Shown: positions 765 to 48,161 of the stretch, one piece after another | How positions within the stretch are numbered: position 1 is the stretch's first letter | Layout of the letters: the number at the start of each line of letters is the position of its first letter | The notes under the pieces: model-generated | Seen by the model: the letters and a program-made list of their open reading frames with translations, nothing else | The model's database searches: none | What the model was told of the DNA's origin: nothing | Made by a program: the position numbers and the translations under genes | Source of the DNA: Thermoanaerobaculia bacterium | GTDB taxonomy: Bacteria > Acidobacteriota > Thermoanaerobaculia > Multivoradales > UBA5704 | Length of the DNA stretch: 64,000 nucleotides | Reading direction: 5' to 3' | Assembly (NCBI GenBank): GCA_035544875.1 | Contig: DASZZP010000083.1 | Span: 384,219-448,218, forward strand

Positions 765-815
765 TGCCGTGTACCAGTTGAATCGCTAGCGATTCGGTGG
801 GATGTCGGGAAGGTC

Positions 816-1061
816 TCAGCGATTCGGCGGCGGGGCAGGCTTCGGGGCGGGGGTCGTGGCGGACGTTTCCTTGGCGAGGGCGTCCAGGCGCTGACGCATC
901 GCCTTCTCGCGCGCGCGAATAGCCGCCGTAATCGCGAGCTGCAGCTCGTTCGGCTGAGCCACCTCGGCGGGGGGTGGCGAGGCCGGCGGCAAGCCGAGCC
1001 GCTGGCGAACCCGCTGTCCGGCGGAAGGCTTCAGCGTGAGCGGCGCGAAGTAAGGAGCCAT
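816..1061 (-). CDS. small hypothetical protein (81 aa; Pro/Ala-rich ends, central helical segment)
   Basis: ATG (revcomp of cat at 1059-1061) in frame to the stop at 816. Sequence MAPYFAPLTLKPSAGQRV...LQLAITAAIRAREKAMRQRLDALAKE has ordinary composition. No recognisable family and the SD is weak. Confidence 0.2.
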   Translation of the reverse strand: MAPYFAPLTLKPSAGQRVRQRLGLPPASPPPAEVAQPNELQLAITAAIRAREKAMRQRLDALAKETSATTPAPKPAPPPNR

Positions 1062-1185
1062 CGCCCTGACACTTGGCCGGCGGCGGGTCTGGGTGGTGGA
1101 CTCGCCGCGGTTGCACTCGTTGTGCGGGCTGCCGTAACATCGCCTCAAAATTCGATCAGGCTGGCGCCGAGGAGGAGCCGCGCCG

Positions 1186-2013
1186 ATGAGCCAGGATATT
1201 TCCCGACGGGGTTTCGTGCGGCAGTCGCTCGGATGGACCGCGTCTCTGGTCTGGGGTCTCGACGCTTTCCAGGCGCTGGCCCAGAACGCGGTCGCACTCC
1301 TCAACTACCAAGGTCGCCTGACCGACGCCGCCGGTCTGCCGCGCACCGGCAGCGCCGCCATGACGTTTCGCATCGTCGACGCGGCTGGCAACCCGCTCGG
1401 CTGGGCGGAGACGCATCCGGCAGTACCGCTCGACAACGGCTTCTTCTCGGTGCAGCTCGGCAGCATCACGCCGCTGACGCCCGCGCTCTTCGCCGGCCCA
1501 CCCACCGACTCGTTCGGTCCCGTTCGCCACCTCGAGGTGACCATCGACGGGGAGACGCTGTTGCCCAACCTGCGCATCACGAGCGCCGCGTGGGCCATCG
1601 GCACCGTGGTTGGAGCCACCGGGCCAGCGGGGCCAAGTGGCACCGCCGGGGTGACGGGACCGACGGGGCCGATAGGCGCCACCGGTGCCGGACCCACCGG
1701 TGCCACGGGCCTGGGCGGAGCGACCGGACCGACAGGATCCTCGGGACCCGCCGGCGCCAGCGGACCGACCGGACCGAGCGGTTCGAGCGGCGCTCAAGGA
1801 CCCACCGGGCCCGCCGGGTCGACGGGACCCACCGGGCCGCAGGGCGCGTCGGGAGCCGCCGGAGCCTCCGGAGGTACCGGCCCCACCGGGCCGCAGGGCA
1901 CCTCCGGAACGACCGGTTCGACCGGTCCACAAGGGTCTACCGGGCCAACGGGCCCGATCGGATCGACCGGGCCGGGGTTTGGCGCCACGGGAGCCACCGG
2001 ACCGGGTCCCTAG
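1186..2013 (+). CDS. collagen-like triple-helix repeat protein with twin-arginine-type signal (275 aa)
   Basis: GGAGGAG SD at 1170-1176 and ATG at 1186. N-terminus [24 protein letters not shown] is a Tat-like RRxFV motif. The C-terminal ~150 aa are uninterrupted Gly-X-Y triplets (GPTGP, GATGP, GSTGP and similar). Confidence 0.75.
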
Positions 2014-2047
2014 CCGGGGCGACGCGGTGCTCCCCCGGATCGCCAGG

Positions 2048-2734
2048 ATGGGTGGCCTGCCAGCAGCCCTGGGTGTTTTCACCCTGATGGCAGGCTTCGG
2101 CTCTCGCGGGCTCCTCGCGCAGAACGTCGTCGTCGAGACCCCCGCACTCACCTCGGGCGGCGGCCTCGCCACCTCGGCCAGCCATCGGCTCTGGAGCTGC
2201 CTCTCCCACGACCCCTCGGGCACGGCGGCGAGCTCCTCGTTCCGCGTACGCGTGGGTTGCGGCGCGGCGCTGGCTGGCGGCGTCATCGTCACCAAGGCGC
2301 CCACCAGCCTCTCCGCCCAAGCGACCCCGTCGTCGGCCCCGGTCGGCGGGAGCATCGCCGATCAAGCCACGCTCTCGGGCGGCGATCGACCCACCGGCAC
2401 GATCACCTTCAACCTCTTCGCCCCTGGCGACACGGGCTGCGCGAGCTCGATCTTCACCTCGACGAAGTCCGTGAGCGGCGATGGCACCTACACCTCCGAC
2501 TCCTTCGCGGCTTTGACTCCAGGCACCTACCGGTGGATCGCGAGCTATAGCGGCGACGCCAACAACCTCGCGGCTGGGCCGACCGTGTGCAGCGATCCGG
2601 TGCAGGCGGCCGTCGTCACTGGGTTCACCGCGGCGATTCCGACGCTCGATCCCCGCGGCCTGGCTCTGCTCGTCCTGCTGCTGGCCGCGGCCGGGCTTCT
2701 CATCGCACGTCGCGCGCCGCTGCCGCCGCGGTGA
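2048..2734 (+). CDS. cell-surface protein with C-terminal IPTL-CTERM sorting domain (228 aa)
   Basis: ATG at 2048, in frame with ORF 1685..2734. N-terminal hydrophobic signal (MGGLPAALGVFTLMAGFGSRGLLAQ). Ser/Thr/Gly-rich body. C-terminus ...AAIPTLDPRGLALLVLLLAAAGLLIARRAPLPPR has an IPTL motif, a TM helix and a basic tail, which is the IPTL-CTERM architecture (TIGR04174-like). Confidence 0.65.
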   Translation: MGGLPAALGVFTLMAGFGSRGLLAQNVVVETPALTSGGGLATSASHRLWSCLSHDPSGTAASSSFRVRVGCGAALAGGVIVTKAPTSLSAQATPSSAPVGGSIADQATLSGGDRPTGTITFNLFAPGDTGCASSIFTSTKSVSGDGTYTSDSFAALTPGTYRWIASYSGDANNLAAGPTVCSDPVQAAVVTGFTAAIPTLDPRGLALLVLLLAAAGLLIARRAPLPPR

Positions 2735-2748
2735 GCCCCGCCGCCAGC

Positions 2749-5700
2749 ATGCCGCGAACAGCCCAGCCTGGCGACCGGCGGCCGACGATCTGCCTGTCGA
2801 TGATCGTGCGCGACGAGGCGCACATCGTCACCGAGGCGCTCGCCTGCCTGGCGCCTCATCTCGACTATTGGGTCGTGGTCGACACCGGCTCGACCGACGC
2901 CACCCGTGACGTGGTGCGCGACTTCTTCGGCGACCGCGGCATCCCCGGCGAGCTCCACGAGCGCCCCTGGCGCGACTTCGGTGCCAACCGCACCGAGGCG
3001 CTCGAGCTGGCGCGCGGCAAGGCCGACTATCTATGGGTCTTCGACGCCGACGACCTGCTGCGCGGCACGCCCGACCTCACCGAGCTCACCCACGACGCCT
3101 ACTCTCTGCGCTTCGACGGCGACCTGCGCTACTGGCGTCCCTTGCTGTTCCGCTCCGACCGCGCCTGGCGCTTCGTCGGCGAGCTGCACGAGTACGCCCA
3201 GTGCGCCGATGGGCCGGCGACCATCGCCAGGCTCGCCGGGGATCACGCGGCCGAGTCGCGCCGGCTCGGCGCGCGCAACCGGCCGGCGGACAAGTACGAT
3301 CGCGACGCCGCGGTGTTCGCCGCCGCGGTGGCGCGCGACCCCAACGACACCCGCAGCCTCTTCTACCTCGCGCAGAGCCACCAGGACGCCGGGCGGCTGC
3401 GCGAGGCGCGGGCCCTCTACGAACGACGCGCCGCCCTCGGCGGCTGGGGCGAGGAGGTCTACGTCGCCCTGCTGCGCGCCGCGCGCTGCCGGCGCGACCT
3501 CGGCCGGCCGTGGCCGCAGCTTCTGCCGGCGTTCCTCGCTGCCTGGTCGGCGCGCCCGACGCGCGCCGAGGCGCTGGTCGACCTGGCCGCCGTCGCCCGA
3601 CTCGCCGGGCGCTGGCCGGAGGCGCACCTGTTCGCCAGCCGGGCGGCGGCGATTCCGGATCCGGTCGACGACGAGCTGTTCGTCGAGCCGGCCGCCTATG
3701 CCTGGCGGGCCCTCGACGAGCTGGCGATCGCCGCGTACTACCTCGGCGACCTCGAGGAGTCGTTCCGCATCAACAGCGAGCTGCTGGCCCGCTCGCGGCT
3801 GCCCGAGCGCGAGCGCGGGCGCATCGAGAGCAACCGCGACTTCTCGGTGCCGCGGGTCAAGGACTCCAGGCTGCAGCACGACGCGGCGATCGTTAGGCGC
3901 ATCCTGGCGCGGTCGCGCGCGACCGCTCCTCGGGTCACCCTCACCATCACCAGCTGCCGGCGGCGGGACCTCTTCGAGAAGACGGTGTGCTCTTTCCTCA
4001 ACGCCTGTACCGACCTCGACCTGATCGACCGCTGGCTCTGCGTCGACGACGGCTCGAGCCCCGAAGACCGCCGCGAGATGCAGCGGCTCTTCCCCTTCTT
4101 CGAGTACGTCTGGAAGGGACCCGAGGAGCGCGGCCACGCGCGCAGCATGAACATCATCCGCGGCGCCGTGCGTACCCCCTTCCTCGTCCACCTCGAGGAC
4201 GATTGGCATTTCTTCGAGCGCCGCGACTACGTCGGGCCGGCGATCCGCATCCTCGAACGCGAGCCCGAGCTCGGCCAGGTCCTCTTCAACCGCAACTACG
4301 CCGAGGTGCTCGCGGACCGCGACATTCCCGGCGGGCAGCTGCGGGTGTCGCCGGCGGGCGATCGCTACGTCGTGCACGAGCACCACGACCCGGGCTCGGA
4401 GTTGTATCGCCGCCTGGCGGAGGTCCATCGGCGGCCCTCCAACGTCTACTGGCCCCACTACTCGCTCCGCCCCTCGCTGCTGCGCGCCACCGTCTTCGAG
4501 CGGGTGGGCCCCTTCGACGAGCAAGCCTCCCACTTCGAGCTCGACTACGCGCGCCGCTACGTCCACGCGCGCCTCTCCTCGGCCTTCTTCGACGGCGTCA
4601 ACTGCCTGCACATCGGCAGGCTCACCAGCGAGCGCGACGATACGGCAAAGCCGAATGCCTACGGGCTCAACGGCATGCCACGGTTCGACGACCGGCCGAT
4701 ACGCGTGCAGCTGCTCGCCAACTGGTGCACCAGCGAAGAGCTCTGCCGCATGTGGGAGAAGATGTCGCGCGGCGGCGGCCGCTGGGGACGGCTGGAGGTC
4801 ACGGCCGGCGGCGATGTCGACTTCCATGCGGTGATCAACGCCGCGCCGCCCGGGGCCGCGGTCGACCCGGCGCGGACGATCGTCTTCCACATGGAGCCGC
4901 GCAGCACCATCGCATCGATGCCCGCCGAGTGGCGCGATCCGGATCCGGCGCGTTTCCTCCAGGTGCGCAGCCACGCCGCCTTCCCCAACGTCTGCGAGTG
5001 GCACCTCGGTCCGACCTACGACGAGCTCTGCGCGCTGCCGATCGAGAAGACCCGGACCCTCTCCACCGTCACCTCCTCGCTCCACTTCTGTCCCGGCCAT
5101 CGGGCACGGATCGCCTTCATCAAGCACCTCGAGGCGAACGGCGTGCCGATCGACGTCTACGGCTGGAGCAACCATCACGGCTTCGCCGGTTACCGCGGAG
5201 CGTTGCCGCGGATGTGCAAGGACGCGGGCCTGTTCCCCTATCGCTACACCTTCGCAGCGGAGAACCACTGGGAAAGGAACTACTTCACCGAGAAGATCGT
5301 CGACGCGATCCTCGCCGAGTGCCTCTGCTTCTACTCGGGTTGCCCGAACCTCGCCGGCCACCTCGACCCGGCGGCCTACGTGGCCCTCGACCTCGACGAC
5401 TTCGCAGCGGCGGCCCGCACCATCGAGACGACGATCGCCAACGGCGAGTGGGAGAAGCGGCTCGACGCCATCCGGCGCGAAAAGCGGCGGATCCTCGACC
5501 AGCTCCAGTTCTTCCCCACTTTGGAGCGGATCGTCGTCGCGGCGCAGGCGGGGATGCCGTTGCCGACGTGCGACGCCGAGGATCTGGACGTCGTCCTGAT
5601 CAACCTCGATCGCCGGCCCGATCGCCTCGCCGCGTTTCGCGCGCAGGCGGAGCGCAGCGGGCTCTCCTACCGGCGGGTCGCAGCGGTCGACGGTCAGGCC

Positions 5701-9039: not shown

Positions 9040-9175
9040 AAGGCGAAACTCCCCGAAGCAAGAGGGAGGGGGCGTCCCCTTCCCCCCCGGAGGGGTGGGA
9101 AGGGGATTGAGGGGTTGCGGGGGGCGATCCGATCGATGCTTCGAGCAGGCCTCCACCGCCGCATCGCAGCGGCGT
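9040..9175 (+). repeat. GC-rich intergenic repeat element, copy 1 (MITE/REP-like, contains CCCCTTCCCCC...GGGGAAGGGG hairpin)
   Basis: Near-identical sequence recurs at 29670-29815 (inverted), 35391-35457 (truncated) and 47940-48100. Shared core: GGGAGGGGGCGTCCCCTTCCCCCCCGG...GGGTTGCGGGGGGCGATCCGATCGATGCTTCGAG..GCCTC.ACCGCC.CATCGCAGC. Confidence 0.85.
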
Positions 9176-9272
9176 CTTATCCTTCGGGATCGTAACCGCC
9201 GGTGGGGACTAGATCGATTCAGACAGGGGAGCTGGCCGCCCCGCTCGGCCGCGCCCCGGAGGAAGCTTCGCC

Positions 9273-29486: not shown

Positions 29487-29660
29487 ACTCTTGCTCCTTG
29501 CAACAGGTTGTTTTTGTTCGCCGCGATCAGCGCGGCAACATGCCCTCCCCTCCTTTGAAAGCGAGGGCAAATCGCGCAATTCGGTGATTCCGGAGTCAGC
29601 ACTCGCAGCACAATCCGGCCTCCGGTTGAATCAGTCTTAAGTCCCACCGGCGGTTCCGAG
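29487..29660 (-). promoter_or_regulatory. long 5' leader of the csp gene (likely cold-responsive 5'UTR)
   Basis: About 170 nt of lower-GC, structured sequence between the csp start and the intergenic repeat. CspA-family mRNAs characteristically carry long regulatory leaders. Confidence 0.4.
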
Positions 29661-29669
29661 CCCGAGGGA

Positions 29670-29815
29670 TGAAACTGCGCTGCAATGTGGCGGCCGAGGC
29701 CTACTCGAAGCATCGATCGGATCGCCCCCCGCAACCCCTCGATCCCCTTCCCACCCCTCCGGGGGGGAAGGGGACGCCCCCACCCTCTTGCTCCGGAGAG
29801 TTTCGTCTTCGATCC
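29670..29815 (-). repeat. GC-rich intergenic repeat element, copy 2 (inverted orientation)
   Basis: Revcomp is about 90% identical to 9040-9175 (same cgaaactc..gcaagagggNgggggcgtccccttcccccccggaggggtgggaaggggat.gaggggttgcggggggcgatccgatcgatgcttcgag... structure). Confidence 0.85.
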
Positions 29816-30100
29816 CACTGCGCCCGCGCTTTCCCGGTATTCCTGAAGCAATAGCTTAGTTGAAGGACCTGATTACGGACACTCTGTTGGCGGGACTTCC
29901 GTTTCCTGGCGCGGCTTTCTAGTCGGTCAAATCGGCAAGCTGCTGGGAGGCAATGAAGCGGGGAATGATTCGTGGCAGCCGCTGCTAACCCAAGTTCCAG
30001 CCATAACGCGCAGAAGGTGCCACATACTATGGCACGTCGAGGGGAGGAATGCAAGACCCCCCGACGGCCAGCGATCGCCCCGCAGGAGGTGCCTGTGTCG

Positions 30101-30859
30101 ATGCGTCTCCCTCGCCCGCTCGATCCGGTGGAAATCCGGGTCCTCGGCTCGCTGCTCGAAAAGGAGCAGACGACGCCGGAGTCCTATCCGCTGACGCTCA
30201 ATGCGCTGCTCTCGGCCTGCAACCAGAGGACCAACCGCGAGCCGGTGCTGCAGCTCGGCGAGGCAGAGGTGAGCGCCGCCCTCGAGCGCCTGCGCCAAGA
30301 CGTTCTAGTCTGGCGCACCGAGAGCGCGCGCAGCCTGCGCTGGAAGCAAAGCGTCGAGCGCCGCTGGGAGCTCGATCCCGCCGCCAAGGCAATTCTCGCC
30401 CTGCTCCTGCTGCGCGGGCCGCAGACTACCGGGGAGTTGCGCGCCCGCAGCGAGCGCCTGCATCCTTTCGCCAGCCTGCAGGAGGTCGAACAGACGCTGC
30501 GCCGTCTGGCCGCGACCGAGGAGCCGCTGGTGCGTGAGATGCCCCGCCGGCCGGGCCAGAAAGAGAGCCGCTGGACCCACCTGGTCGGCCCGCCGCGCGC
30601 TGGCGGCGAGCCGGTCCTGCCGGGACACGATGACGCCGCTGAGGGCGCGACGGACCCTCGCGCCGCTGCCCTCGCCGCGGTCGGTGCCCCCATCGGCCCC
30701 GGTGCGGTCGCTTCCGCTCCGGCGGCCGCGATGGCGACCCCCGGCGCCTCCGGCGCCTCTGGTTTTTCCGGCGCGCTCGCCACCCTCGCCACCCGCGTGG
30801 GGCGCCTCGAAACCCTGGTCGAGCGGCTCGCCGCCGAGATCGCGGAGCTGAAGGGCTAG
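30101..30859 (+). CDS. YceH/DUF480 (UPF0502) family protein
   Basis: AGGAGG at 30084-30089, then GTG 30095 / ATG 30101. LDPVEIRVLGSLLEKEQTTPESYPLTLNALLSACNQRTNREPV matches the DUF480 winged-helix repeats. Ala/Gly-rich C-terminus. Confidence 0.75.
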   Translation: MRLPRPLDPVEIRVLGSLLEKEQTTPESYPLTLNALLSACNQRTNREPVLQLGEAEVSAALERLRQDVLVWRTESARSLRWKQSVERRWELDPAAKAILALLLLRGPQTTGELRARSERLHPFASLQEVEQTLRRLAATEEPLVREMPRRPGQKESRWTHLVGPPRAGGEPVLPGHDDAAEGATDPRAAALAAVGAPIGPGAVASAPAAAMATPGASGASGFSGALATLATRVGRLETLVERLAAEIAELKG

Positions 30860-30866
30860 ACCAGGG

Positions 30867-31915
30867 CTAGACCACCTCGAGCCGCGGCGGCCCGTCGACG
30901 ACCTCTCCCACCTCGCCGGCGCGATGGCCGCTCGCCGTCAGCGCCTCGAGCAATGCGGCGGCCGCTGCCGCGGGGACCGCGAGCAGCAGCCCGCCCGAGG
31001 TTTGCGGATCGAAAAGCAGCTCGCGCTGGCGCTTGTCGAGCGCCGCATGAACGGCAAGGGCGGCCAGAACGTTGCCCTCGTTGGCGCCCGTGCAGCCGGT
31101 CGAGATGCCGGCCTCTACCAGCCGGTAGAATTGATCGTGAACGGGTAGCCGCTCGAAAACGACGCGCAAGCCGGCGCCCGAGGCACGAGCCATCCCCAGC
31201 GCATGCCCGGCCAGGCCAAAGCCGGTGATGTCAGTCGCCGCGTGCGCGCCGTGCTCGAGCGCCAGCTTGGCGGCAACGGCATTGAGCTTTTCCATCTGCT
31301 GCAGCACCGGCTCGAGGCCGGCCTCGTCGAGCTTGTCGGCCTTGAAGGCGTTGATCAGCACGCCGGTGCCGAGCGGTTTGGTGAGCAAGAGCCGATCGCC
31401 CGCACGGGCGCCGGCGTTGGTCAGCAGGCGCTGAGGATCGGCCTCGCCGACGACTGCCAGCCCGAACTTGAGCTCGGGATCGCGCACCGAATGGCCGCCG
31501 AGCAGCGCGGCGCCGGCCTCCGCCAGGGCCTCGGCCGCTCCTTGCAGGATGCTGCCGAGGACCCCCTCCGGCACGTCGGCATCGGGAAAACAGCAGAGAT
31601 TGAGCGCGAACAGCGGCCAACCGCCCATCGCATATACGTCGGACAGCGCGTTGGCGGCGGCCACCCGCCCGAAACGGCGCGGGTCGTCGCACACCGGGGT
31701 GATGAAATCGGCGGTGGCCACCAGGGCGCGGTCGCCGAGCAGATAGACTCCGGCGTCGTCGGCCGTTTCCGGTCCGACCAGCACGCTCTCGTTGCCGCCG
31801 CTCAGGCGGGCGAGAGGACGAATCAGATCCGCCAGGTCCCCCGGACCTATCTTGGCCGCTCAGCCGCCGGTGGTGGCGCAGGCGGTCAGGCGGAACTTGC
31901 GCCGCATCCAGGCCA
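30867..31915 (-). CDS. selD: selenide, water dikinase (selenophosphate synthetase), selenocysteine-containing form; in-frame TGA at 31859-31861
   Basis: ORF 30867..31784 matches SelD from LLVGNETRDDAAVYDL onward. Extending upstream in frame gives MAWMRRKFRLTACATTGG-U-AAKIGPGDLADLIRP. This aligns with the E. coli SelD GAGCGCKISP active site with Sec replacing Cys17. Start is ATG 31913-31915 (alternative ATG 31904-31906). Confidence 0.8.
31820..31861 (-). promoter_or_regulatory. putative bacterial SECIS hairpin immediately 3' of the selD UGA
   Basis: mRNA reads UGA-GCGGCCAAGAU-AGGUCC-GGG-GGACCU. A perfect 6-bp stem begins 11 nt after the UGA, the usual SECIS position. Confidence 0.5.
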
Positions 31916-32067
31916 TGGGGCGGATTCTATCCCGCGGCCCCCGGTACCGCGACGGGGACTGCGGATTAAGATACGGCGTGCCGCGCCGCTCGGCGGCGGG
32001 CGCGTTCCCGAAGTGCGGGCAGAGACCCGCGCGCCTAATCTGGCCTAATCTGAAGGAGTGAACCACC

Positions 32068-32880
32068 ATGGCAGAGCAGGGGCAGCCGCGGGGCCGCAAG
32101 ACCGCGCTCTTGACCGGAGCTTCGAGCGGGATCGGATCCGAGCTGACGAGCGTCTTCGCGGCGGGAGGCTTCGACCTCGTGCTGGTGGCGCGCAGCGCCG
32201 GCCGCCTGGAGCAGCTGGCCGGCGAGCTGCGCAGCCGCCACGGCGTCGGCGTGCGGGTGCTCGCCAAGGATCTGGCGGTCGCCGCGGCGGCGCGCGAAGT
32301 CTGGCAGGAGCTCGGGGAAGCAGGCACCCAGATCGACGTTCTGGTGAACAACGCCGGATTCGGGACCTACGGTCCATTCGCCGAGACCGACCTCAACGCC
32401 GAGCTGCAGGAGATGCAGCTCAACATGGTGACGCCGACCGAGCTGACCAAGCACTTCCTTCCAGGCATGCTCGCTCGCCGCTGGGGTCGCATCCTCAACG
32501 TCGCCTCCACCGCGGCCTTCCAGCCTGGCCCGCTGATGGCGGTGTATTACGCGACCAAGGCCTACCTGCTGTGGTTTTCCGAGGCGCTTGCCGAGGAGCT
32601 CGCCGGGACCGGAGTCACCGTCACCGCCCTCTGCCCGGGTCCGACATCTTCGGGCTTCCAGGCCCGGGCCGCGATGGAAGAGTCGAAACTGTTTGCAGGC
32701 AAGAACCTGATGACTGCCGCGGCGGTGGCGCGAGCCGGCTACGACGGCCTGCTCGCGGGCCGGCGGATCGTCATCCCGGGGTTGATGAACAGGCTGCTCG
32801 CCCAGAGCGCGCGCGTCAGCCCGCGCCGTCTGGTGACTCGCATCGTCCGCCGCATGCAGGAGCGGAAAGGCGGCCATTGA
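32068..32880 (+). CDS. SDR-family short-chain dehydrogenase/reductase
   Basis: TGASSGIGSEL cofactor motif, NNAGFG, catalytic YxxxK (YYATKAY). Confidence 0.85.
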   Translation: MAEQGQPRGRKTALLTGASSGIGSELTSVFAAGGFDLVLVARSAGRLEQLAGELRSRHGVGVRVLAKDLAVAAAAREVWQELGEAGTQIDVLVNNAGFGTYGPFAETDLNAELQEMQLNMVTPTELTKHFLPGMLARRWGRILNVASTAAFQPGPLMAVYYATKAYLLWFSEALAEELAGTGVTVTALCPGPTSSGFQARAAMEESKLFAGKNLMTAAAVARAGYDGLLAGRRIVIPGLMNRLLAQSARVSPRRLVTRIVRRMQERKGGH

Positions 32881-32908
32881 GCGCGCGAGCGTGGAAGGAG
32901 GGATCTCG

Positions 32909-33586
32909 ATGTACAGCAGACTGTCAGTCTCCCTGGTCGCCGAGCTCATCGGCACCTTCGCCCTGATTTTCATCGGCGCCGGCAGCGTGGCGCTGGCCGG
33001 AAACCTGGTGGGCATCGCCTTCGCGCATGGGCTGGTCGTGGTCGGCTTCGCCTATGCCTACGGCCACATCTCGGGAGCGCACATCAATCCGGCGGTGACG
33101 CTCGGTGTCTGGGTGGCCGGCAAGATCGAGGCGCGGCGCGCCGCCTCCTATGTCGTCGCGCAGTGCGCGGGCGGCATCCTGGGAGCGCTCGCCCTGTGCC
33201 AGGTGCTCGGCGGGTCGGAGACCGGCCTCGGGGCCACCCACCTCGCCCAGCGGCTCGAGGTGCACGGCACCGTGATCACGATCACGCCGACCGTCGGGGT
33301 GTTCCTGGAGGCGGTGCTGACCTTCTTCCTGGTCAACGCGGTTATGAACGCCGGCATCAGCGGCAAGGCGACGATCCCCGGCGGGCTGGCGATCGGCCTG
33401 ACGCTGGTCTTCTGCATCTTGATGGGGGGGCCGCTCACCGGTGCCAGCCTCAATCCGGCGCGCTCGCTGGGACCCGCCGTGGCGGCAGGCGACTACGGTG
33501 GCCTCTGGGTCTACTTCGTCGGTCCGGCGCTGGGCGGCGTGATGGCCGGGCTGCTCTACAAGGGGTTTCTGGAGGAGCGCGTCTGA
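32909..33586 (+). CDS. aqpZ: aquaporin Z / MIP-family channel
   Basis: GAAGGAGGG SD then ATG 32909. Two NPA boxes (HINPAVT, SLNPARS). AELIGTFALIF start is typical of AqpZ. Confidence 0.85.
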   Translation: MYSRLSVSLVAELIGTFALIFIGAGSVALAGNLVGIAFAHGLVVVGFAYAYGHISGAHINPAVTLGVWVAGKIEARRAASYVVAQCAGGILGALALCQVLGGSETGLGATHLAQRLEVHGTVITITPTVGVFLEAVLTFFLVNAVMNAGISGKATIPGGLAIGLTLVFCILMGGPLTGASLNPARSLGPAVAAGDYGGLWVYFVGPALGGVMAGLLYKGFLEERV

Positions 33587-33669: not shown

Positions 33670-35388
33670 ATGGCGCCGATTCAGTTGCCTGAACGATCTG
33701 GGGAGCGCCCGAGCGATCGCATGATCGGCAAGATCCGCCCGAGCTGCCGCCGCGGCAGCCGCCGCAGCAGCTCCATCAGCCGCGGCAGCCGTCCCTGCTG
33801 GCCGGCGGCCGGCGCCGCGGCGCTCGCCCTGCTGCTGCTCGGCTCAATGCTCTCCGGCATGGCCGAGGCCCGCCGGCCGGGCGGCGGCCAAACCTACTCC
33901 GGGAGTCATTCCAGCCACTCCACTCATTCCGCCAGCCTGTCGCGCCCCGGCGGCGGCCACACCTTCTCCGGCAGCTCCTCGCGCCCCGGCGGCGGCCATA
34001 CCTATTCCGGCGGCTCCTCGCGCGGCGGCTCGAGCCGTGGCGGCGCGCCGGTGGTGGGCTTGCCGGGCGCCGGCCTCGCGGGCTGCGGCGGTGCCGGCTG
34101 CTTCATGCTCCTTGTGCTGCTCGTCGTCGTCATCCTCATCTTCATCTATTTCAAGCGCGGTGGGTTCGGCGGAGCGGGCGGCGCGTCGCCGCCGGCTACC
34201 CCCGACCTGCCGCCGTCGCGCGACCTCGACTCGATCCGCGATCTCGACCCGGAGTTCTCGGTGGTCCTGTTCGAAGACTTCGCCTATGCCCTTTACGCCA
34301 AGGCGCACGAGGCGCGCACCAACCGAGGCGAGCTCGAGGCGCTCGCTCCCTACCTGAGCGAGGAGGCGCGGGCCGAGCTGGCGCAGCGGCAACCGGCCGG
34401 TGCACCGGTGTCGGGCGTGGTGATCGGCGCGATGCGGGTGGCGAGCCTCCTCCTGCCGGGCGGCGCCGAGGCGCGGCCGCAGGTCGTGACGGTCCTGGAG
34501 CTCGAATCCAACATGACCCTGGGCGCCGGCACCGGCGACTTGACGCAGTACGTCCGCGAGCGCTGGCGGTTGGTGCGCGATGCCGCGGTGCGCAGCAAGC
34601 CGCCGGAGGCGGTGCGCAGCTTCCACTGCCCCAACTGCGGCGCGCCGCTTGGCCCCGCCGGCGGCGAGCGCTGCGAATATTGCGGCGAGGTGGTCTCGGG
34701 GGGCCGCTTCGACTGGAGCGTGGTCGCGATCGAGCTGCTCGAGGTCGAGTCGCGGCCGCCGGCCCTGACCGGCACCACCGCCGAGCAGAGCGGCTCCGCG
34801 CCGACGATCAGCCACCCGGCGGTCGCCGAGCGGCGCGCCGAGCTGCTGGCCGCCGATCCCGAGAGCAGCGACGAGGCGGTGGCCAAGCGCCTGCAGCTGA
34901 TCTATTCCGAGCTCAATCCCGCCTGGACCGCCCTCGACCTGACGCCGGTCCGCGGCTACGTCTCCGACGGCCTGTTCGACTACCTCCAGTACTGGATTGC
35001 CGCCTACCGCAGCCAGGGGCTGCGCAACGAGCTGCGCAACATGCGCCTGACGCGCATCCAGCTGACCAAGGTCATCCGCGACAAGCATTTCGATTCGCTG
35101 ACCTTCCGCATCTGGGCAACCGGGCGCGACACCACGGTGCGGCAGGCGAGCGGCGAGGTGGTGGGGGGCAATCCGAATGCCGACCGCGACTACTCCGAGT
35201 ACTGGACGCTGATCCGCGGCGCCGCGGTCCGCGGCGCTCCGCGAGCGGACAAGAGCTGCCCCAACTGCGGCGCCCAGCTCGACGTCAACATGGTCGGACG
35301 CTGCACCCACTGCGACGCCAGGATCACGAGCGGCGATTTCGATTGGGTGCTGAGCAAGATCGAGCAGGACGAGTCCTACACCGGCTAG
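33670..35388 (+). CDS. membrane-anchored hypothetical protein with Gly/Ser/His repeats and two tandem zinc-ribbon + GxFDW modules (572 aa)
   Basis: N-terminal RPGGGxTxSG x3 repeats and a TM helix (CFMLLVLLVVVILIFIYF). Two ~190-aa repeats each end CPNCGA...C.YCG/CTHCDA then G.FDW..IE (FDWSVVAIELLEVE; FDWVLSKIEQDE). Possible Tim44-like/NTF2-like fold. Start may be 33721. Confidence 0.55.
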   Translation: MAPIQLPERSGERPSDRMIGKIRPSCRRGSRRSSSISRGSRPCWPAAGAAALALLLLGSMLSGMAEARRPGGGQTYSGSHSSHSTHSASLSRPGGGHTFSGSSSRPGGGHTYSGGSSRGGSSRGGAPVVGLPGAGLAGCGGAGCFMLLVLLVVVILIFIYFKRGGFGGAGGASPPATPDLPPSRDLDSIRDLDPEFSVVLFEDFAYALYAKAHEARTNRGELEALAPYLSEEARAELAQRQPAGAPVSGVVIGAMRVASLLLPGGAEARPQVVTVLELESNMTLGAGTGDLTQYVRERWRLVRDAAVRSKPPEAVRSFHCPNCGAPLGPAGGERCEYCGEVVSGGRFDWSVVAIELLEVESRPPALTGTTAEQSGSAPTISHPAVAERRAELLAADPESSDEAVAKRLQLIYSELNPAWTALDLTPVRGYVSDGLFDYLQYWIAAYRSQGLRNELRNMRLTRIQLTKVIRDKHFDSLTFRIWATGRDTTVRQASGEVVGGNPNADRDYSEYWTLIRGAAVRGAPRADKSCPNCGAQLDVNMVGRCTHCDARITSGDFDWVLSKIEQDESYTG

Positions 35389-35390
35389 AA

Positions 35391-35457
35391 AGAAATTGGT
35401 CCGTGCGTCAGGGGAGGGGGCGTCCCCTTCCCCCCCGGAGGGGTGGGAAGGGGATCA
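35391..35457 (+). repeat. GC-rich intergenic repeat element, copy 3 (5' half only)
   Basis: gaaattggtccgtgcgtcaggggagggggcgtccccttcccccccggaggggtgggaaggggat matches the 5' half of copy 4 (47940-48005) almost exactly. Confidence 0.8.
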
Positions 35458-35479
35458 GGGAGGGAGGGAGGTTTATGAT

Positions 35480-39013: not shown

Positions 39014-39384
39014 GGCCCCCTCCGCCCCGGCCTGCTCTCTCCAAGTAAGACAGACCTAACGCCCCTTGGCGGGGGGAGCGTTGGAGGTCACGACCTGGGT
39101 CCGCGCGCTGGCCGGGGTTGGTGAGAAAGACGCTCTGGGGGGAGGGAGTGATGGCGCGCGGACCCAGGTCGCGAGGTGACCTCCGACGCCCCGGACCGGC
39201 AGCGGGGGGAATTGCCCTGCAGCCCTCGCACACCCCCTCGCCACCTCGACGAAGCTGGTGCAGTGAGCGAGGACCCTGCGGAGGGCGCGGCCGTTGGCAC
39301 CTTGGGTTCGTTCCACTCTCCTCAGGACAGTGCCAGGACGGAGGGGGCTCACCTCCGGGGCTCACCTCCGGTAATATCGCTAGC

Positions 39385-41073
39385 GTGCTGCCCGAGCTGA
39401 CCAGCGCCGAGCCGGAGGCCCAGGTGAAGTGGGCCAAGGTCATCGACAACACGCGCTGCATTGGCTGCCACGCCTGCACCACCGCCTGCAAATCGGAGAA
39501 CCAGGTGCCGCTCTCGGTGACGCGCACCTACGTCAAGTACGTGGAGGTGGGCGTCTTCCCTCAGGCCCGGCGGGTATTCCAGGTTACCCGCTGCAATCAA
39601 TGCGACTCCGCTCCCTGCACGGTCGCCTGTCCCACCAGCGCGATGTACCGGCGGCCCGACGGCATCGTCGACTTCGACAAGTCGATCTGCATCGGCTGCA
39701 AGGCCTGCATCGCAGCCTGCCCCTACGACGCCATCTTCATCAATCCCGAAGACCATTCGGCCGAGAAGTGCAACTTCTGCGCGCACCGCCTGGACGTCGG
39801 GCTCGAGCCGGCTTGCGTCGTGGTCTGCCCCACCGAGGCGATCCTGGTCGGCGACCTCAACGATCCGGCCTCGCGGGTGGCGCAGATCGTCCACCGTGAG
39901 CCGGTCGCCGTGCGCCGCCCCGAGAAGGCGACGCTGCCGAAGCTCTTCTACCGCGGCGCCCATCAGGCAACGCTCGATCCGCTGGCGGCCAGGCGGCCGG
40001 CCGGCGGTCTTTTCTCGTGGAGTCAGCAGCAGCCGTTGGGTGGAGGTGAGGTGGTCTCCGGTTACCCGGATCTCGCCGGGCGGAGCAACTCCTCCGCCGC
40101 GGCCCTCCTCGCCTATGACATTCCCCACCGGGCTCCCTGGGACTGGCGCGTGAGCCTCTACACCCTGACCAAGGGAATCGCCGCCGGCGTCTATCTGGTG
40201 GCCCTGCTGCTCATGGCGCTCGGCCGGCTGAGCGCCACGAGCCCGCTCTGGCTGTTCCAGGTGCCGGTCCTGGCCGGCCTCTTCCTGGCCGCAACCGGCG
40301 CCCTCCTGATCTGGGACCTGGAGCACCCCGCCCGCTTCTACCTCATCTTCACCCGGCCGCAGTGGCGCAGCTGGCTGGTGCGCGGAGCATTTCTCATCGG
40401 CGGCTATGCGGTCACGCTCGCCCTCCACCTGCTCTGTGCCGTTGCCGGCCGGCCGCAGCTCACCCGGCTGCTTATCTGGCTCGGCCTGCCTCTGGCGCTG
40501 CTCACGGCGGTCTACACTGCTTATCTCTTCGCCCAGGCGAAGGCCCGCGACCTCTGGCAGAACCCGTTGCTGCCGCCGCATCTCGCGGTCCAGGCCGTGC
40601 TGGCCGGGGCTGCGGCCCTCGTGCCGGCGGTCATCCTGAGCATGCCGGCCGCGCCGCGCCTGCTGCCGTCTCTGCTCGCCATCCTGGCCGCCGTCTGCCT
40701 GCTCCACCTCGGGCTGGTTCTCGGCGAGCTGACGATGACCCACGCCACGGCGCACGCGCACCTGGCCAGCCAGGAGATGCTCCGCGGCCGCTTCCGCGCC
40801 TGGTTCTGGGCAAGCATCGCGCTGGTTGGCGCGGCCGCGGCAATGTCCTGGCTCGGCGCCGCGGGTGCCACCGCGCATCTAACGGGCAGCGTTGCAGGCA
40901 CTGCCGCGGATCTGATGGGCGGTGCTGCCGCAGCCGCGGATCTAGTGGGCGGCGCGGCCTCGGCCGCGCCTTACTTCTTGATCGGCGCCGGAGCCGCCCT
41001 CTTCGCCCTCCTGGGTTTGCTAGCCTTCGAGCACGCCTACGTGCAGGCGGGCCAGGCAGTGCCGCTGGCCTAG
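39385..41073 (+). CDS. fused 4Fe-4S ferredoxin subunit + NrfD/PsrC-type membrane anchor of a molybdoenzyme complex (TtrB-TtrC-like fusion)
   Basis: Four CxxCxxCxxxCP clusters (CIGCHACTTAC, CNQCDSAPCTVACP, CIGCKACIAACP, CNFCAHR...CVVVCP), then 8+ TM helices of NrfD type. GTG 39385 chosen because upstream in-frame sequence is non-protein-like. Start is uncertain. Confidence 0.7.
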   Translation: MLPELTSAEPEAQVKWAKVIDNTRCIGCHACTTACKSENQVPLSVTRTYVKYVEVGVFPQARRVFQVTRCNQCDSAPCTVACPTSAMYRRPDGIVDFDKSICIGCKACIAACPYDAIFINPEDHSAEKCNFCAHRLDVGLEPACVVVCPTEAILVGDLNDPASRVAQIVHREPVAVRRPEKATLPKLFYRGAHQATLDPLAARRPAGGLFSWSQQQPLGGGEVVSGYPDLAGRSNSSAAALLAYDIPHRAPWDWRVSLYTLTKGIAAGVYLVALLLMALGRLSATSPLWLFQVPVLAGLFLAATGALLIWDLEHPARFYLIFTRPQWRSWLVRGAFLIGGYAVTLALHLLCAVAGRPQLTRLLIWLGLPLALLTAVYTAYLFAQAKARDLWQNPLLPPHLAVQAVLAGAAALVPAVILSMPAAPRLLPSLLAILAAVCLLHLGLVLGELTMTHATAHAHLASQEMLRGRFRAWFWASIALVGAAAAMSWLGAAGATAHLTGSVAGTAADLMGGAAAAADLVGGAASAAPYFLIGAGAALFALLGLLAFEHAYVQAGQAVPLA

Positions 41074-41167
41074 TCTGAGTCTGGTTGCCCGGAGGGGATC
41101 GTGCCATGCGAACGGGATGCGAGCTGAACGGACCGCAGACAGCGCTCTAAGGGAGAGGGAAGCGGGC

Positions 41168-44164
41168 ATGGGCATCAGAGACCTCGCACGGCGGGTGAGC
41201 GCGGCGCGGACGGCAGCCGAAGCGCGGGGCGAGACGTTCTACCCCGGCGCGAGCCGGGTCCACCTCGCCGCCTTTCCGCCCAAGGAGCGCTGGGACGACT
41301 GGGTGGAGCTCGACTCGCGCTCGTGGCCCGAGCGGGTTGAGCGCCGCTACCTGCTGGTGCCCACCACCTGCTTCAACTGCGAGTCGGCATGCGGCCTGCT
41401 CGCCTACGTCGAGCGCGAGACGCTGCAGGTGGCGAAGTTCGAGGGCAACCCAGAGCATCCGGGCTCGCGCGGGCGCAACTGCGCCAAGGGGCCTGCCACC
41501 CTGAACCAGGTCACCGACCCGGACCGCATCCTCTTTCCGCTCAAGCGTGCCGGGCGGCGCGGCGAGGGCAAATGGGAGCGGGTGGGTTGGGACGAGGTCC
41601 TCGACGAGCTTGCCCGGCGCATCCGCAGGGCGATCGTCGAGCGGCGCCAGGGCGAGATCATGTATCACGTCGGACGTCCGGGAGAGGACGGATTCACCGA
41701 GCGCGTGCTGGCCAACTGGGGCGTGGATGGGCACAACTCCCACACCAACATCTGCTCCGCCGGCGCCCGCGCCGGCTACGCGTTCTGGAGCGGCATCGAC
41801 CGGCCGAGCCCCGACCACGCGCGCGCCAAGCTGATCCTCCTGGTGAGCTCCCACCTCGAGGCTGGCCACTACTTCAACCCGCACGCGCAGCGCATCATCG
41901 AAGGCAAGCAGCAGGGCGCCAAGCTGATCGTCTTCGACACGCGGCTCTCCAACACCGCCACCCACGCCGACCTCTGGGCGGCGCCGATCCCGGGCTCCGA
42001 GGCGGCGATCTTCCTCGCGGTCGCCAACCATCTGATCCAGAACCGGCTCTACGACCGCGAGTTCGTGCGCCGGTGGTGGAACTGGCAGGAATACCTCGAA
42101 ACCGAGCACCCGGAGCTCGCGCCGTCGTTCGAGAGCTTCGAGACGGTGCTCGGGACGCTCTATGCCGGCTATTCCTTCGACTACGCCGCCGCCGAGTCGG
42201 GGCTGGAAGCCGGCGTCGTCGCGCAGATCGCCGAGCTGGTGGCGGGCGCCGGCACGCGTCTGGCGACCCACACCTGGCGCAGCGCCGCCTCCGGCAACCT
42301 CGGGGGCTGGCAGGTGGCGCGCACCCTGTTCCTGCTCAACGCCCTGCTCGGGGCGGTGGCGACCGAGGGCGGCACCTATCCCAATGCCTGGAACAAGTTC
42401 GTTCCCCGGCCCATCCATCTGCCGCGCCACCCGGAGCACTGGAACGAGCTCACCTGGCCGGTCGAGTATCCGCTGTCCATGTACGAGCTGTCGTTTCTGC
42501 TGCCGCACCTGCTCAAGGAGCGGCGCGGGCGGCTCGACGTCTATTTCACCCGGGTCTACAACCCGGTGTGGACTAACCCCGACGGCTTCAGCTGGATCGA
42601 GGTGTTGACCGACGAGCAGCTGGTGGGCCTGCACGTCGCCCTCACCCCGACCTGGAGCGAGACCGCCTACTTCGCCGACTTCGTCCTGCCCATGGGGCAC
42701 GGCTCCGAGCGCCACGACCTCCACTCGTACGAGACCCACGACGCGCAGTGGCTGGGCTTCCGCCAGCCGGTGCTGCGGGCCGCCCGCGCCCGGCTCGGCG
42801 AAGCCATTCACGACAGCCGCGAGGCAAACCCCGGCGAGGTCTGGGAGGAGAACGAGTTCTGGCTGGAGCTCACCTGGCGCATCGATCCCGACGGCAGCCT
42901 GGGCATCCGCAAGTTCGCCGAGTCGCTTGCCCGCCCCGGCACGCGCCTGAGCGTCGAGGAGTACTACGGCTATATCTTCGAGAACTCCGTTCCCGGGCTG
43001 CCGGAAAGGGCCAGGAAAGAAGGGCTCGAGCCGCTGGCCTTCATGCGCCGCTACGGCGCCTTCGAGATCGCCCGCGGGATCGGCCCGGTCCACGAGCGCG
43101 AAGTCCCGGCGGTGGAGCTGGTGGACGTGGCCGAGGACCGCTACGGGCGGGTCTACAGCCGCGCGCCGAAGCCGCCGGCGCTCAATCTGGTGCCCACCGG
43201 CCTCCCCGATCCTGACGCCTCCGGCCGGCGGCTTGCCGGCGTGCGCGTGGACGGCATGGTGCGGGCGGGGTTCCCCACCCCCAGCGGCCGGCTCGAGTTC
43301 TATTCGGGGACGCTGGCGCGCTGGGGCTGGCGCGAGCAGGCGCTGCCGGGCTACATCCGGAGCCACGTTCATCCGCAGAGCCTGGGCGAGGGGCAGATGT
43401 GCCTCATCTCGACCTTCCGGCTGCCGGTCCACATCCACACCCGCAGCGCCAACGCCAAGTGGCTGGACGAGATCGCCCACAGCAACCCGCTCTGGATCCA
43501 TCCCCGCGACGCGGCGCGCCTGGGCGTCGGGACCGGCGACCTGGTGCGGATCGAGACCGAGATCGGCCATTTCGTCGACCAGGCCTGGGTGACGGAGGGG
43601 ATTCGGCCCGGGGTGGTGGCCTGCAGCCATCACATGGGGCGCTGGAAGCTCTCCGGGCAGGGCCAGGGCCAGCGGCAGCTCATGGCCACCGTAGCGCTCG
43701 GCCACGAGGGGAGCGCCTGGACGATGCGCCGCGAGCGCGGCGTCGAGCCCTACGCCTCGGCCGATCCCGACTCGGCGCGGATCTGGTGGACCGACACGGG
43801 CGTGCACCAGAACCTGACCTTTCCGGTCCACCCCGATCCGGTCTCCGGCATGCACTGCTGGCACCAGGCGGTGCGGGTGCGGAAGGCCGAGACCGGCGAC
43901 CGCTACGGCGAGGTCGCCGTCGACACCGCGAAATCGCACCAGGTCTACAAGGAGTGGCTTGCCAGGACCCGCCCGGCCACCCGGATCTCGCCCGACGGCA
44001 CGCGCCGGCCCCACTGGTTGATCCGGCCGCTCCGGCCTTCGCGCGAGGCCTACCGCCTGCCCCAAGGTCCGCCAGGCTCATCCACCACATCAGCCCCGCC
44101 GCGGTCCGACCCGCCTGCTGCCGCCGCCGGCGGTGCCCCGGGCCAGGGCCCGGGCCAGGGCTAG
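41168..44164 (+). CDS. molybdopterin (bis-MGD) oxidoreductase catalytic subunit, TtrA/PsrA/PhsA/SrdA-like, no Tat signal detected
   Basis: GGGAGAGGGA SD then ATG 41168. N-terminal 4Fe-4S motif CFNCESACGLL...C. MopB domain (GRNCAKG, HTNICSAGARAGY Cys ligand candidate). C-terminal molydopterin-dinucleotide-binding domain. No RRxFLK or hydrophobic h-region at the N-terminus. Confidence 0.8.
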   Translation: MGIRDLARRVSAARTAAEARGETFYPGASRVHLAAFPPKERWDDWVELDSRSWPERVERRYLLVPTTCFNCESACGLLAYVERETLQVAKFEGNPEHPGSRGRNCAKGPATLNQVTDPDRILFPLKRAGRRGEGKWERVGWDEVLDELARRIRRAIVERRQGEIMYHVGRPGEDGFTERVLANWGVDGHNSHTNICSAGARAGYAFWSGIDRPSPDHARAKLILLVSSHLEAGHYFNPHAQRIIEGKQQGAKLIVFDTRLSNTATHADLWAAPIPGSEAAIFLAVANHLIQNRLYDREFVRRWWNWQEYLETEHPELAPSFESFETVLGTLYAGYSFDYAAAESGLEAGVVAQIAELVAGAGTRLATHTWRSAASGNLGGWQVARTLFLLNALLGAVATEGGTYPNAWNKFVPRPIHLPRHPEHWNELTWPVEYPLSMYELSFLLPHLLKERRGRLDVYFTRVYNPVWTNPDGFSWIEVLTDEQLVGLHVALTPTWSETAYFADFVLPMGHGSERHDLHSYETHDAQWLGFRQPVLRAARARLGEAIHDSREANPGEVWEENEFWLELTWRIDPDGSLGIRKFAESLARPGTRLSVEEYYGYIFENSVPGLPERARKEGLEPLAFMRRYGAFEIARGIGPVHEREVPAVELVDVAEDRYGRVYSRAPKPPALNLVPTGLPDPDASGRRLAGVRVDGMVRAGFPTPSGRLEFYSGTLARWGWREQALPGYIRSHVHPQSLGEGQMCLISTFRLPVHIHTRSANAKWLDEIAHSNPLWIHPRDAARLGVGTGDLVRIETEIGHFVDQAWVTEGIRPGVVACSHHMGRWKLSGQGQGQRQLMATVALGHEGSAWTMRRERGVEPYASADPDSARIWWTDTGVHQNLTFPVHPDPVSGMHCWHQAVRVRKAETGDRYGEVAVDTAKSHQVYKEWLARTRPATRISPDGTRRPHWLIRPLRPSREAYRLPQGPPGSSTTSAPPRSDPPAAAAGGAPGQGPGQG

Positions 44165-44191
44165 GCCCGAGCCCGGCGTGGCCGCCTGACC

Positions 44192-45124
44192 GTGGAGCTC
44201 TTCCGGGCCCTGGGCGCCCTCTGCGAGTCGCCGCGCCCCGAGCTGCAGGGGATCGCCGACCTCCTCGAGCTCGGAGCGCTCCCCACGCGCGCCGCCCACG
44301 GCGACCTCTTCCTCTTCCAGCTCTACCCCTACGCCTCGGTCTATCTGGGCGCCGAGGGAATGATGGGAGGAGAGGCGGGCGACCGGATCGCGGGCTTCTG
44401 GCGCGCTCTCGGGCAGACGCCGCCGCCGGAGCCCGACCATCTGGCGCTGATGCTCGGCCTGCAGGCGCGACTCAGCGAGCTCGAGGCGGCGGCGGAGGCC
44501 GCTGACGGACCGGAGCGGGAACGACCTGCCGGCAGCGCCGGCTATGGCGACGGCAACCTGGCGGCAGCGCCGGCCGCCGGCCGCTGGCGCCACGCCCGCG
44601 CGGCCTTTCTGTGGGAGCACCTGCTCTGCTGGCTGCCGCTCTTCCTCGGCAAGCTCGCCGGCCTCGCGGCGGTCGCCGCGCCGTTCTACCTGCGCTGGGG
44701 CGCCCTCCTGCGCGACGCCTTGCGCGAGGAGGCGGCCGCCCTGCGCCTGCCGGCCCGGCTGCCGCTGCACCTGCGCGCCGCGCCCGGCATCGCGAGCCCC
44801 CGGGATGAAGAGGGGGGGCCGCAAGCCTTCCTACGATCGCTGCTCAGCCCGGTGCGCAGCGGCATGATCCTCACCCGCGCCGACCTCGCCCGCGCCGCTC
44901 GCGACCTCGATCTGGCGCCGCGGGCCGGCGAGCGCCGCCTGGCCCTCGAGACCATGCTCGATCAGGACGCCGCGGCAGCCCTGGCCTGGCTCGGCGCCGA
45001 GGCCGCCGCCTGGGCGGGCCGCCACCAGCCGGAGCTCCACTTCGCCCCGCAGCTCGCCGACTTCTGGCGCGCCCGCGCCGAGGCCACCGCCCGGCTGCTC
45101 GGTGACCTGTGGGCGGACCTCTAG
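44192..45124 (+). CDS. TorD/DmsD/NarJ-family redox-enzyme maturation chaperone
   Basis: Immediately follows the catalytic subunit. Contains the TorD signature region FLFQLYPYASVYLGAEGMMGGE (cf. PYESVY). Ala/Leu-rich helical protein. Confidence 0.6.
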   Translation: MELFRALGALCESPRPELQGIADLLELGALPTRAAHGDLFLFQLYPYASVYLGAEGMMGGEAGDRIAGFWRALGQTPPPEPDHLALMLGLQARLSELEAAAEAADGPERERPAGSAGYGDGNLAAAPAAGRWRHARAAFLWEHLLCWLPLFLGKLAGLAAVAAPFYLRWGALLRDALREEAAALRLPARLPLHLRAAPGIASPRDEEGGPQAFLRSLLSPVRSGMILTRADLARAARDLDLAPRAGERRLALETMLDQDAAAALAWLGAEAAAWAGRHQPELHFAPQLADFWRARAEATARLLGDLWADL

Positions 45125-47858: not shown

Positions 47859-47939
47859 GAGGCCTCCACCGAGCAGAAGGCCGCCGGGCAGGTGCACGCC
47901 GGCGCGACCGCTCGAGCCCGGCAATCCTACTCGAAGGAA

Positions 47940-48100
47940 ATTGGTCCGCGCGCCAGGGGAGGGGGCGTCCCCTTCCCCCCCGGCGCCGCCGGGCAGGGAC
48001 CCGGCGGCTTCCGACAACCGGGAAGGGGACTCGCGGGGGTTGCGGGGGGCGATCCGATCGATGCTTCGAGTAGGCCTCGACCGCCACATCGCAGCAGCGT
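47940..48100 (+). repeat. GC-rich intergenic repeat element, copy 4
   Basis: gaaattggtccgcgcgccaggggagggggcgtccccttccccccc...gggttgcggggggcgatccgatcgatgcttcgagtaggcctcgaccgccacatcgcagcagcg. Same ends as copies 1 and 2 with a divergent middle. Confidence 0.85.
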
Positions 48101-48161
48101 TACATGCCGCGGGATCGGCACCGCCGGTGGGCGCTCGAACCTGTTCAGGGCAAAGCGGCTG

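Follow-up and report, generated by a model that had tools for sequence, protein, structure and literature searches.

An in-frame UGA and a predicted SECIS hairpin point to a selenocysteine-containing SelD in a Thermoanaerobaculia bacterium

The selD gene (selenide, water dikinase, or selenophosphate synthetase) on the minus strand of a 64-kb stretch of contig DASZZP010000083.1 from a Thermoanaerobaculia bacterium (hereafter the window) raises a simple question: is the TGA triplet close to its 5′ end a stop codon, or is it decoded as an amino acid, and if so, as which? The list of open reading frames (ORFs) splits the gene into a product of 305 amino acids (30867..31784) and an upstream ORF (31860..32351) which ends at the TGA and looks unrelated. 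That single TGA interrupts an otherwise open frame on the minus strand, running from ATG (31916-31914) to TAG (30869-30867), and if it is read the predicted product has 349 residues and begins MAWMRRKFRLTACATTGG-U-AAKIGPGDLADL..., or, extended further, MAWMRRKFRLTACATTGG-(TGA)-AAKIGPGDLADLIRPL...; over the last 20 codons 5′ of the TGA the G+C content of third codon positions is 1.0. An earlier note on this DNA had proposed that the selD frame continues upstream through the TGA, and both the open frame and the peptide which it quoted proved correct, although its coordinates were one base low (the TGA lies at 31860-31862 rather than 31859-31861 and the gene ends at 31916 rather than 31915). We conclude with high confidence that standard bacterial selenocysteine (Sec) recoding yields a Sec-containing SelD of 349 amino acids from this gene.

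The identity of the gene was established by protein-level searches with Cys in place of the TGA. The read-through protein matched TIGR00476, the equivalog model for SelD, with 353.2 bits (cut-off 125), and as this match extends over positions 1-310 of the 311 in the model it includes the segment upstream of the TGA; NF002098 gave 307.8 bits against a cut-off of 299, and the PurM-like domains PF00586 and PF02769 (AIRS and AIRS_C) are recorded for the database protein P0001, which is identical to the 305-residue ORF. The best matches among solved structures were SelD from Aquifex aeolicus (2yye, E = 5e-63) and from Escherichia coli (3u0o, E = 7e-58). The TGA falls opposite the Cys of SSG-C-AAKVGPGDL in 2yye, a residue which we take to be a replacement of the native Sec13, and opposite Cys17 of the E. 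coli enzyme (GAG-C17-GCK20), bearing out the proposal in the earlier note that it aligns with the E. coli active site. Lys22 is found opposite Lys20, and the lysine at this position is presumably catalytic. The loop expected of a SelD, in which Sec or Cys is followed by Lys three residues on, is thus present as GG-U-AA-K, compared with G-C-AA-K and G-C-GC-K in the two structures, and the two A's of the AAG codon for Lys22 (columns 10-11) are invariant in alignments of TGA-type and Cys-type genes alike. The gene encodes SelD and its TGA is aligned with the catalytic Sec/Cys; the predicted activity of the protein is the ATP-dependent synthesis of selenophosphate from selenide.

A further feature of the loop concerns a second cysteine. 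Many Sec-type SelD proteins have a Cys three residues before the Sec (CAG-U or TCG-U), whereas in the clade to which the window sequence belongs a Cys is found six residues before it (C-ATTGG-U; codon 13, 31874-31876) and Ala occupies the position of E. coli Cys19. This more distant Cys could pair with the Sec in a selenenyl-sulfide bond.

An indication that the region upstream of the TGA is translated comes from close relatives, for which the DNA of L002 (a Thermoanaerobaculia metagenome-assembled genome), L083, L106 and L107 (duplicates of each other), L108 and L109 was compared; a metagenome scan contributed two of the close relatives, L082, which was missed by the motif script, and L083. 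Across six distinct close relatives, protein identity to the window SelD was approximately 74-82% (76% for L002), and every close relative examined has an ATG, 18 codons, the TGA and then AAK[IV]GPGDL. The N-termini in L002, L083, L106, L108 and L109 read MAW[ML]RRKF or MALFR[RK]KF, and from codon 5 onward, upstream of the TGA, five of the six codons that vary among the six distinct relatives do so only synonymously, the sixth being an R/K exchange. Such mainly synonymous change is the mark of translated sequence rather than of a pseudogene in decay or a 5′ leader. Across approximately 100 related selD loci from many phyla, the codon at this position is TGA in 71 and TGC or TGT in 32. The locus therefore shows what is looked for in a selenoprotein gene, namely an in-frame UGA aligned to Cys in homologues with coding conservation on both sides.

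The second line of evidence is a hairpin directly downstream. As the earlier note had described, a perfect AGGUCC-GGG-GGACCU hairpin starts 11 nt past the UGA, and an additional U.G pair (31849/31833) could lengthen its stem to 7 bp; the hairpin is present in both the minimum-energy and the centroid folds. It was compared with the published model of the bacterial Sec insertion sequence (bacterial SECIS, or bSECIS), which specifies a loop of 3-9 nt capping 4-16 bp of upper stem, a G in one or both of loop positions 1 and 2 within the pattern N1-G-[G|U]-N-N2, a distance of 16-37 nt from UGA to loop and a minimum free energy (MFE) of -7.5 kcal/mol or lower (PMC13188914). The window hairpin has a 3-nt GGG loop on six Watson-Crick pairs, with the possible U.G pair in addition; C-GGG-G fits the loop pattern with N1 = C, N = G, N2 = G and a C-G closing pair; the loop lies 17 nt from the UGA (an 11-nt spacer and a 6-nt 5′ arm); and the MFE of the 24-nt segment AGAUAGGUCCGGGGGACCUGGCGG is -9.0 kcal/mol. 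The hairpin also uses codons that are rare among their synonyms in this genome, with ATA making up 0.9% of Ile codons and GGT and GGG 6.5% and 19% of Gly codons, and its core 5-bp stem would be expected approximately 1% of the time from codon usage alone. From its fit to this model, the hairpin is predicted to be a bacterial SECIS element and to be bound by SelB.

Comparison of genes with and without the TGA was then informative. A stem of at least 5 bp occurs at the hairpin position in 78% of 65 distinct TGA-type loci, as against 16% of 31 Cys-type loci (Mann-Whitney p = 1e-8). When paired cells were scored in ungapped codon alignments, with the register of the window hairpin set against slid registers, 71.2% of cells were paired in that register in the TGA-type genes and 24-43% when slid, apart from the +1 slide, which corresponds to a tetraloop register and gave 62%; in the Cys-type genes 44.2% of cells were paired in the window's register, which was no better than when slid. 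Distant Sec-type selD genes form hairpins at the same place from other sequences, such as UCAACCC-GGUC-GGGUUGA (L006), CUCGGC-CAG-GCCGAG and AGUCCGGC-GGU-GCUGGACU, and changes on both sides of the stem were seen at pairs 16/28, 17/27 and 18/26. The one close Cys-type relative which retains GPGDL, L110, has CCG-GGG changed to CCC-GGC, which breaks the GGUCC/GGACC stem, but it forms a different 6-bp hairpin and is an ambiguous control; L111 has no hairpin. The hairpin is specific to UGA-type selD genes.

Several observations nevertheless weigh against a Sec-decoding interpretation and should be set beside this evidence. In a window of 70% G+C a hairpin just as good turns up within this range of positions for 1.5-4% of randomly chosen sites and after 16 of the 1133 TGA triplets, and the 81-nt region shows no added stability over shuffled sequences (z = +1.1), thermodynamic stability alone being uninformative in DNA of this composition. 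Rfam gave no relevant match, either at the gathering threshold on the whole window or in a permissive E-value search around the site. The sequence of the hairpin is largely dictated by the conserved GPGDL peptide which overlaps it, and as the hairpin is invariant in the close clade there is no covariation there. The other 6-bp hairpin of the Cys-type L110 belongs here too; such hairpins have been described as SECIS remnants which persist after Sec-to-Cys conversion. Lastly, no selA, selB or tRNA-Sec was detected within the 64-kb window using ARAGORN, Rfam, tblastn with E. coli SelA and SelB, and Pfam scans, nor did selA, selB or selC turn up at distances of up to 10 kb from selD in L106-L109 and L111, all of them close relatives. 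By itself the hairpin is weak to modest evidence, and it is the comparative evidence which lifts it above chance. Taken together, the TIGR00476 match, the Cys homologues, the conserved relatives and the TGA-specific hairpin support the claim, made in the earlier note, that selD is itself a selenoprotein gene.

With regard to the remainder of the selenium machinery, the sole tRNA in the window is a tRNA-Met, and Pfam scans of approximately 40 genes revealed nothing selenium-related. Besides selD, no window gene has a coding signal across an in-frame TGA; the only other TGA-spanning candidate, at 63061-63063, was rejected as it consists of two adjacent genes in the same frame. In several other lineages of the same alignment class, tRNA-Sec, selA and selB adjoin selD. 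The arrangement also occurs beside Cys-type genes, as in three Acidobacteriaceae loci a tRNA-Sec lies directly upstream of a Cys-type selD (L029, 9819-9913; L033, 9823-9917; L074, 7234-7328) and is followed by selA and selB (in L074 by partial matches only), so a Cys at the SelD active site does not imply loss of the Sec trait. As both the UGA and the SECIS are conserved, the organism probably has a Sec-decoding system; by analogy with established bacterial Sec decoding, selA, selB and selC would lie elsewhere in its genome and selenium would be incorporated into the protein.

Under the scheme which we favour, translation would start at the ATG at 31916 and the UGA at codon 19 (31862-31860) would be decoded as Sec instead of terminating the chain. 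The U-AGGUCC-GGG-GGACCU-G hairpin would act as the SECIS, its G-rich apical loop lying 17 nt from the UGA; as in known bacterial Sec decoding, SelB with GTP and Sec-tRNA(Sec) would bind the hairpin and decode UGA19. Sec19 and Lys22 would then be placed in a flexible, glycine-rich N-terminal loop, the presumed site at which selenophosphate is made from selenide and ATP.

The most obvious alternative is that the TGA is a real stop, in which case selD is a pseudogene or gives a truncated protein starting at GTG 31784 and lacking the catalytic loop. Gene callers do return exactly this 305-residue product, more window genes end in TGA than in any other stop codon, and no Sec machinery was found in the window. 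However, six distinct relatives all retain the ATG, the TGA and the 18 codons ahead of it, most of the changes being synonymous, which is unlike a decaying pseudogene; a truncated product would lose the residues aligned to E. coli Cys17 and Lys20; and the stretch of 25 codons from the TGA to the GTG shows a match to conserved SelD residues (AAKIGPGDL...). A genuine stop is thus considered very unlikely. A different possibility is that the UGA is read through without any Sec machinery, the hairpin stimulating near-cognate or suppressor decoding which inserts, for example, Cys or Trp. This would fit with selA, selB and selC not being found in the window, and hairpin-assisted non-Sec read-through of a SelD-family UGA has been described in insects, in hymenopteran SPS1. 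Against it, the loop sequence and spacing of the hairpin fit the SelB-dependent bSECIS model, other lineages of the same alignment class carry tRNA-Sec, selA and selB beside selD, and surveys show a Sec or Cys SelD accompanied by selA and/or ybbB in 93% of SelD-bearing species; we give such read-through little credence. The same small weight is attached to the idea that the lineage as a whole has no complete set of SelA, SelB and tRNA-Sec and that its conserved UGA and hairpin drive SelB-independent read-through with Cys or another residue. Nothing found here points in that direction, but if it were true the gene would show in a bacterium what is known from hymenopteran SPS1, namely read-through of a UGA enhanced by a hairpin.

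Two further explanations were rejected. One base change would suffice to make a TGA from TGC or TGT, and Cys forms are known in related lineages, so the triplet might be a sequencing or assembly error. The separately assembled Logan contig L001 (SRR12277194) is, however, identical in sequence, including the TGA, although it possibly derives from the same sample as the source of the window, and TGA is also present in every close relative from other samples; an error is therefore exceedingly unlikely, and the reading of TGA rather than TGC or TGT given in the earlier note holds in this second assembly. Reassignment of TGA to one of the standard amino acids, as in code 4 or code 25, has nothing specific in its favour. 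Sixteen of the 30 confidently called window genes stop at TGA, and selD aside there is no coding signature across an in-frame TGA, leaving this explanation with a negligible probability. Sec decoding of UGA19 by the standard bacterial route accordingly remains the reading that we prefer.

If so, the consequence is mainly one of annotation, the true product very probably being a protein of 349 amino acids with Sec19 and not the 305-residue fragment of the gene callers, a fragment which contains neither the Sec nor the Lys of the catalytic loop. The warning that such a gene is easily mis-annotated as a truncated ORF was well founded: not only does the ORF list split it at 31784, but of the best 120 database homologues 118 are predictions of 305-328 amino acids that lack the N-terminus and begin shortly past the Sec-equivalent position, for example at VGPGDLA... 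or MIAPL.... P0001 itself was called on L001. The only full-length proteins among the 120 are P0051 and P0063, which read TGG-C-AAKVG and so have Cys at the position of the window's TGA. The SelD proteins of an entire Acidobacteriota-like clade from soil and sediment have thus been recorded without their catalytic loop, and annotations that truncate SelD are already recognised as a problem (BSepDB paper). The coordinates of selD, its elements and a neighbouring gene cluster are collected in the table.

Table 1. Positions in the window of selD, its sequence elements and the molybdopterin oxidoreductase cluster.
Feature	Position	Strand	Remarks
Complete selD coding sequence	30867..31916	-	349 codons including predicted Sec19, plus TAG 30869-30867; selenide, water dikinase (selenophosphate synthetase)
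selD start codon, ATG	31914..31916	-	same position kept in L002, L083, L106, L108 and L109
Codons 2-18 (AWMRRKFRLTACATTGG), glycine-rich N-terminal loop	31863..31913	-	left out of automatic gene calls
In-frame TGA, predicted Sec codon, residue 19	31860..31862	-	from alignment to SelD structures and Cys homologues
AAG, Lys22	31851..31853	-	three residues past Sec; aligned with E. coli Lys20 and Aquifex C-A-A-K
Predicted bacterial SECIS hairpin, U-AGGUCC-GGG-GGACCU-G	31833..31849	-	core six pairs 31848-31834, inside codons 23-28 (I-G-P-G-D-L); AGGUCC 31848-31843, loop GGG 31842-31840, GGACCU 31839-31834
Truncated ORF, GTG start at 31784	30867..31784	-	305 amino acids; in ORF list; same as database protein P0001
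Fused 4Fe-4S / NrfD membrane subunit	39118-41073	+	
Molybdopterin oxidoreductase catalytic subunit	41117-44164	+	1015 amino acids; no in-frame TGA
TorD/NarJ-like chaperone	44192-45124	+	

The surroundings of selD show some conservation of their own. An aquaporin-type MIP channel gene (32891-33586, plus strand), for which the best NCBIfam match was the MIP family model at slightly under its cut-off, lies upstream of selD on the opposite strand, with a short-chain dehydrogenase gene (32068-32880) between the two in the window. A MIP gene was found directly upstream of selD in all five of the long relative loci fetched (L106, 9083-9757; L107, 5438-6112; L108, 9167-9835; L109, 9075-9749; L111, 8796-9467), of which four are distinct as L106 and L107 are duplicates. 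This pairing might reflect the uptake of small selenium species, or it might be mere synteny within the clade. The three-gene molybdopterin oxidoreductase cluster (39118-45124, plus strand) lies approximately 5-7 kb from selD in both the window and L106, where it occupies positions 1-5234; its catalytic subunit is closest to PhsA and to the dimethyl sulfoxide (DMSO)/selenate-family models, far below every curated cut-off.

At its 3′ end selD converges with a DUF480 (YceH-like) gene (29972-30859, plus strand), only 7 nt separating the two stop codons. The Pfam domain starts at residue 50 of the listed DUF480 product, and the true start of that gene therefore probably lies downstream of the listed GTG. 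A DUF480 gene is found at the same position in L108 (11022-11630), in the Cys-type L110 (2411-3259) and in L001 (2217-2981). At the selD stop (window 30850-30880) the 11-nt sequence GGTCTAGCCCT occurs twice in tandem on the minus strand, a duplication which spans the stop and creates a second in-frame TAG (30858-30856) three codons after the first, whilst on the plus strand the DUF480 gene also terminates within this segment. A dispersed intergenic repeat, rich in G+C and as long as approximately 167 nt, occurs at 9040-9206, 29643-29809, 35385-35459 and 47930-48138, its copies being 85-98% identical and some of them inverted; it contains a palindromic core, GGGAGGGGGCGTCCCCTTCCCCCCCGGAGGGGTGGGAAGGGGATC. 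One copy lies between a cold-shock gene and the DUF480 gene, approximately 1 kb past the 3′ end of selD. The repeat gives rise to spurious ORFs which share peptides such as PSPPEGWEGD, and it looks like a repetitive extragenic palindromic (REP) element or a miniature inverted-repeat transposable element (MITE).

Set against what is known of selenoproteins, the window gene offers nothing new in principle; it is a further Sec-type SelD, in a poorly studied lineage, and a full-text literature search returned no paper containing both Thermoanaerobaculia and selenocysteine. Judged by the sequence itself, from its best genome match (L002) and its 70% G+C, the organism is probably a Thermoanaerobaculia-like acidobacterium. 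Its presence marks the organism as a probable user of Sec, in which, through the known self-dependence of SelD, the cell needs selenium in order to activate selenium. No bacterial selenoprotein families are more widespread than FdhA and SelD, SelD being second among prokaryotes; in a reference set of prokaryotic genomes 19% of the SelD genes encode Sec, always at this position, and Sec-containing SelD proteins and their SECIS elements have been catalogued across bacteria for two decades.

The closest parallel at the protein level is Aquifex aeolicus SelD (2yye and 2zod), which shares with the window protein both the loop G-[U/C]-A-A-K-[IV]-G-P-G-D-L and the AIRS / AIRS_C fold. It is a distant relative and not an orthologue from within one lineage, and ahead of the Sec position it has LVRSSG, whereas in the window protein (TACATTGGU) a Cys precedes the Sec by six residues. 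We take the native Aquifex enzyme to be a selenoprotein, its Sec13 having been changed to Cys for crystallography. E. coli SelD (3u0o) belongs to the same family but is of the Cys type, its Cys17 and Lys20 corresponding to Sec19 and Lys22 of the window; as it uses Cys (GAGCGCK), no recoding signal is needed, whereas the window gene, which has Ala in place of Cys19, appears to rely on a UGA and a SECIS. The fdhF SECIS of E. coli, whose SelB-binding hairpin has been defined by experiment, shares with the window hairpin the position of a stem-loop within the coding sequence directly 3′ of the UGA and a G/U in the apical loop, but there is no sequence similarity and the bulged U of the fdhF type is not evident in the perfect 6-bp stem described here. 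The minimal upper stem-loop of fdhF works also when placed 11 nt after the UGA.

At the level of the RNA, the nearest counterpart is the SECIS of Acetomicrobium mobile selD, UGAGCAGCCAAAUU-GGGUCC-GGC-GGACCU, which likewise starts 11 nt after the UGA (an example given in the BSepDB paper). The window sequence UGAGCGGCCAAGAU-AGGUCC-GGG-GGACCU is near-identical to it, with the same 11-nt spacer, a 6-bp stem of the GGUCC/GGACC type and a G-rich triloop. The loop is GGG in the window compared with GGC in Acetomicrobium, or a GGUC tetraloop in other selD lineages, and a lower stem is not conserved among the close relatives of the window gene.

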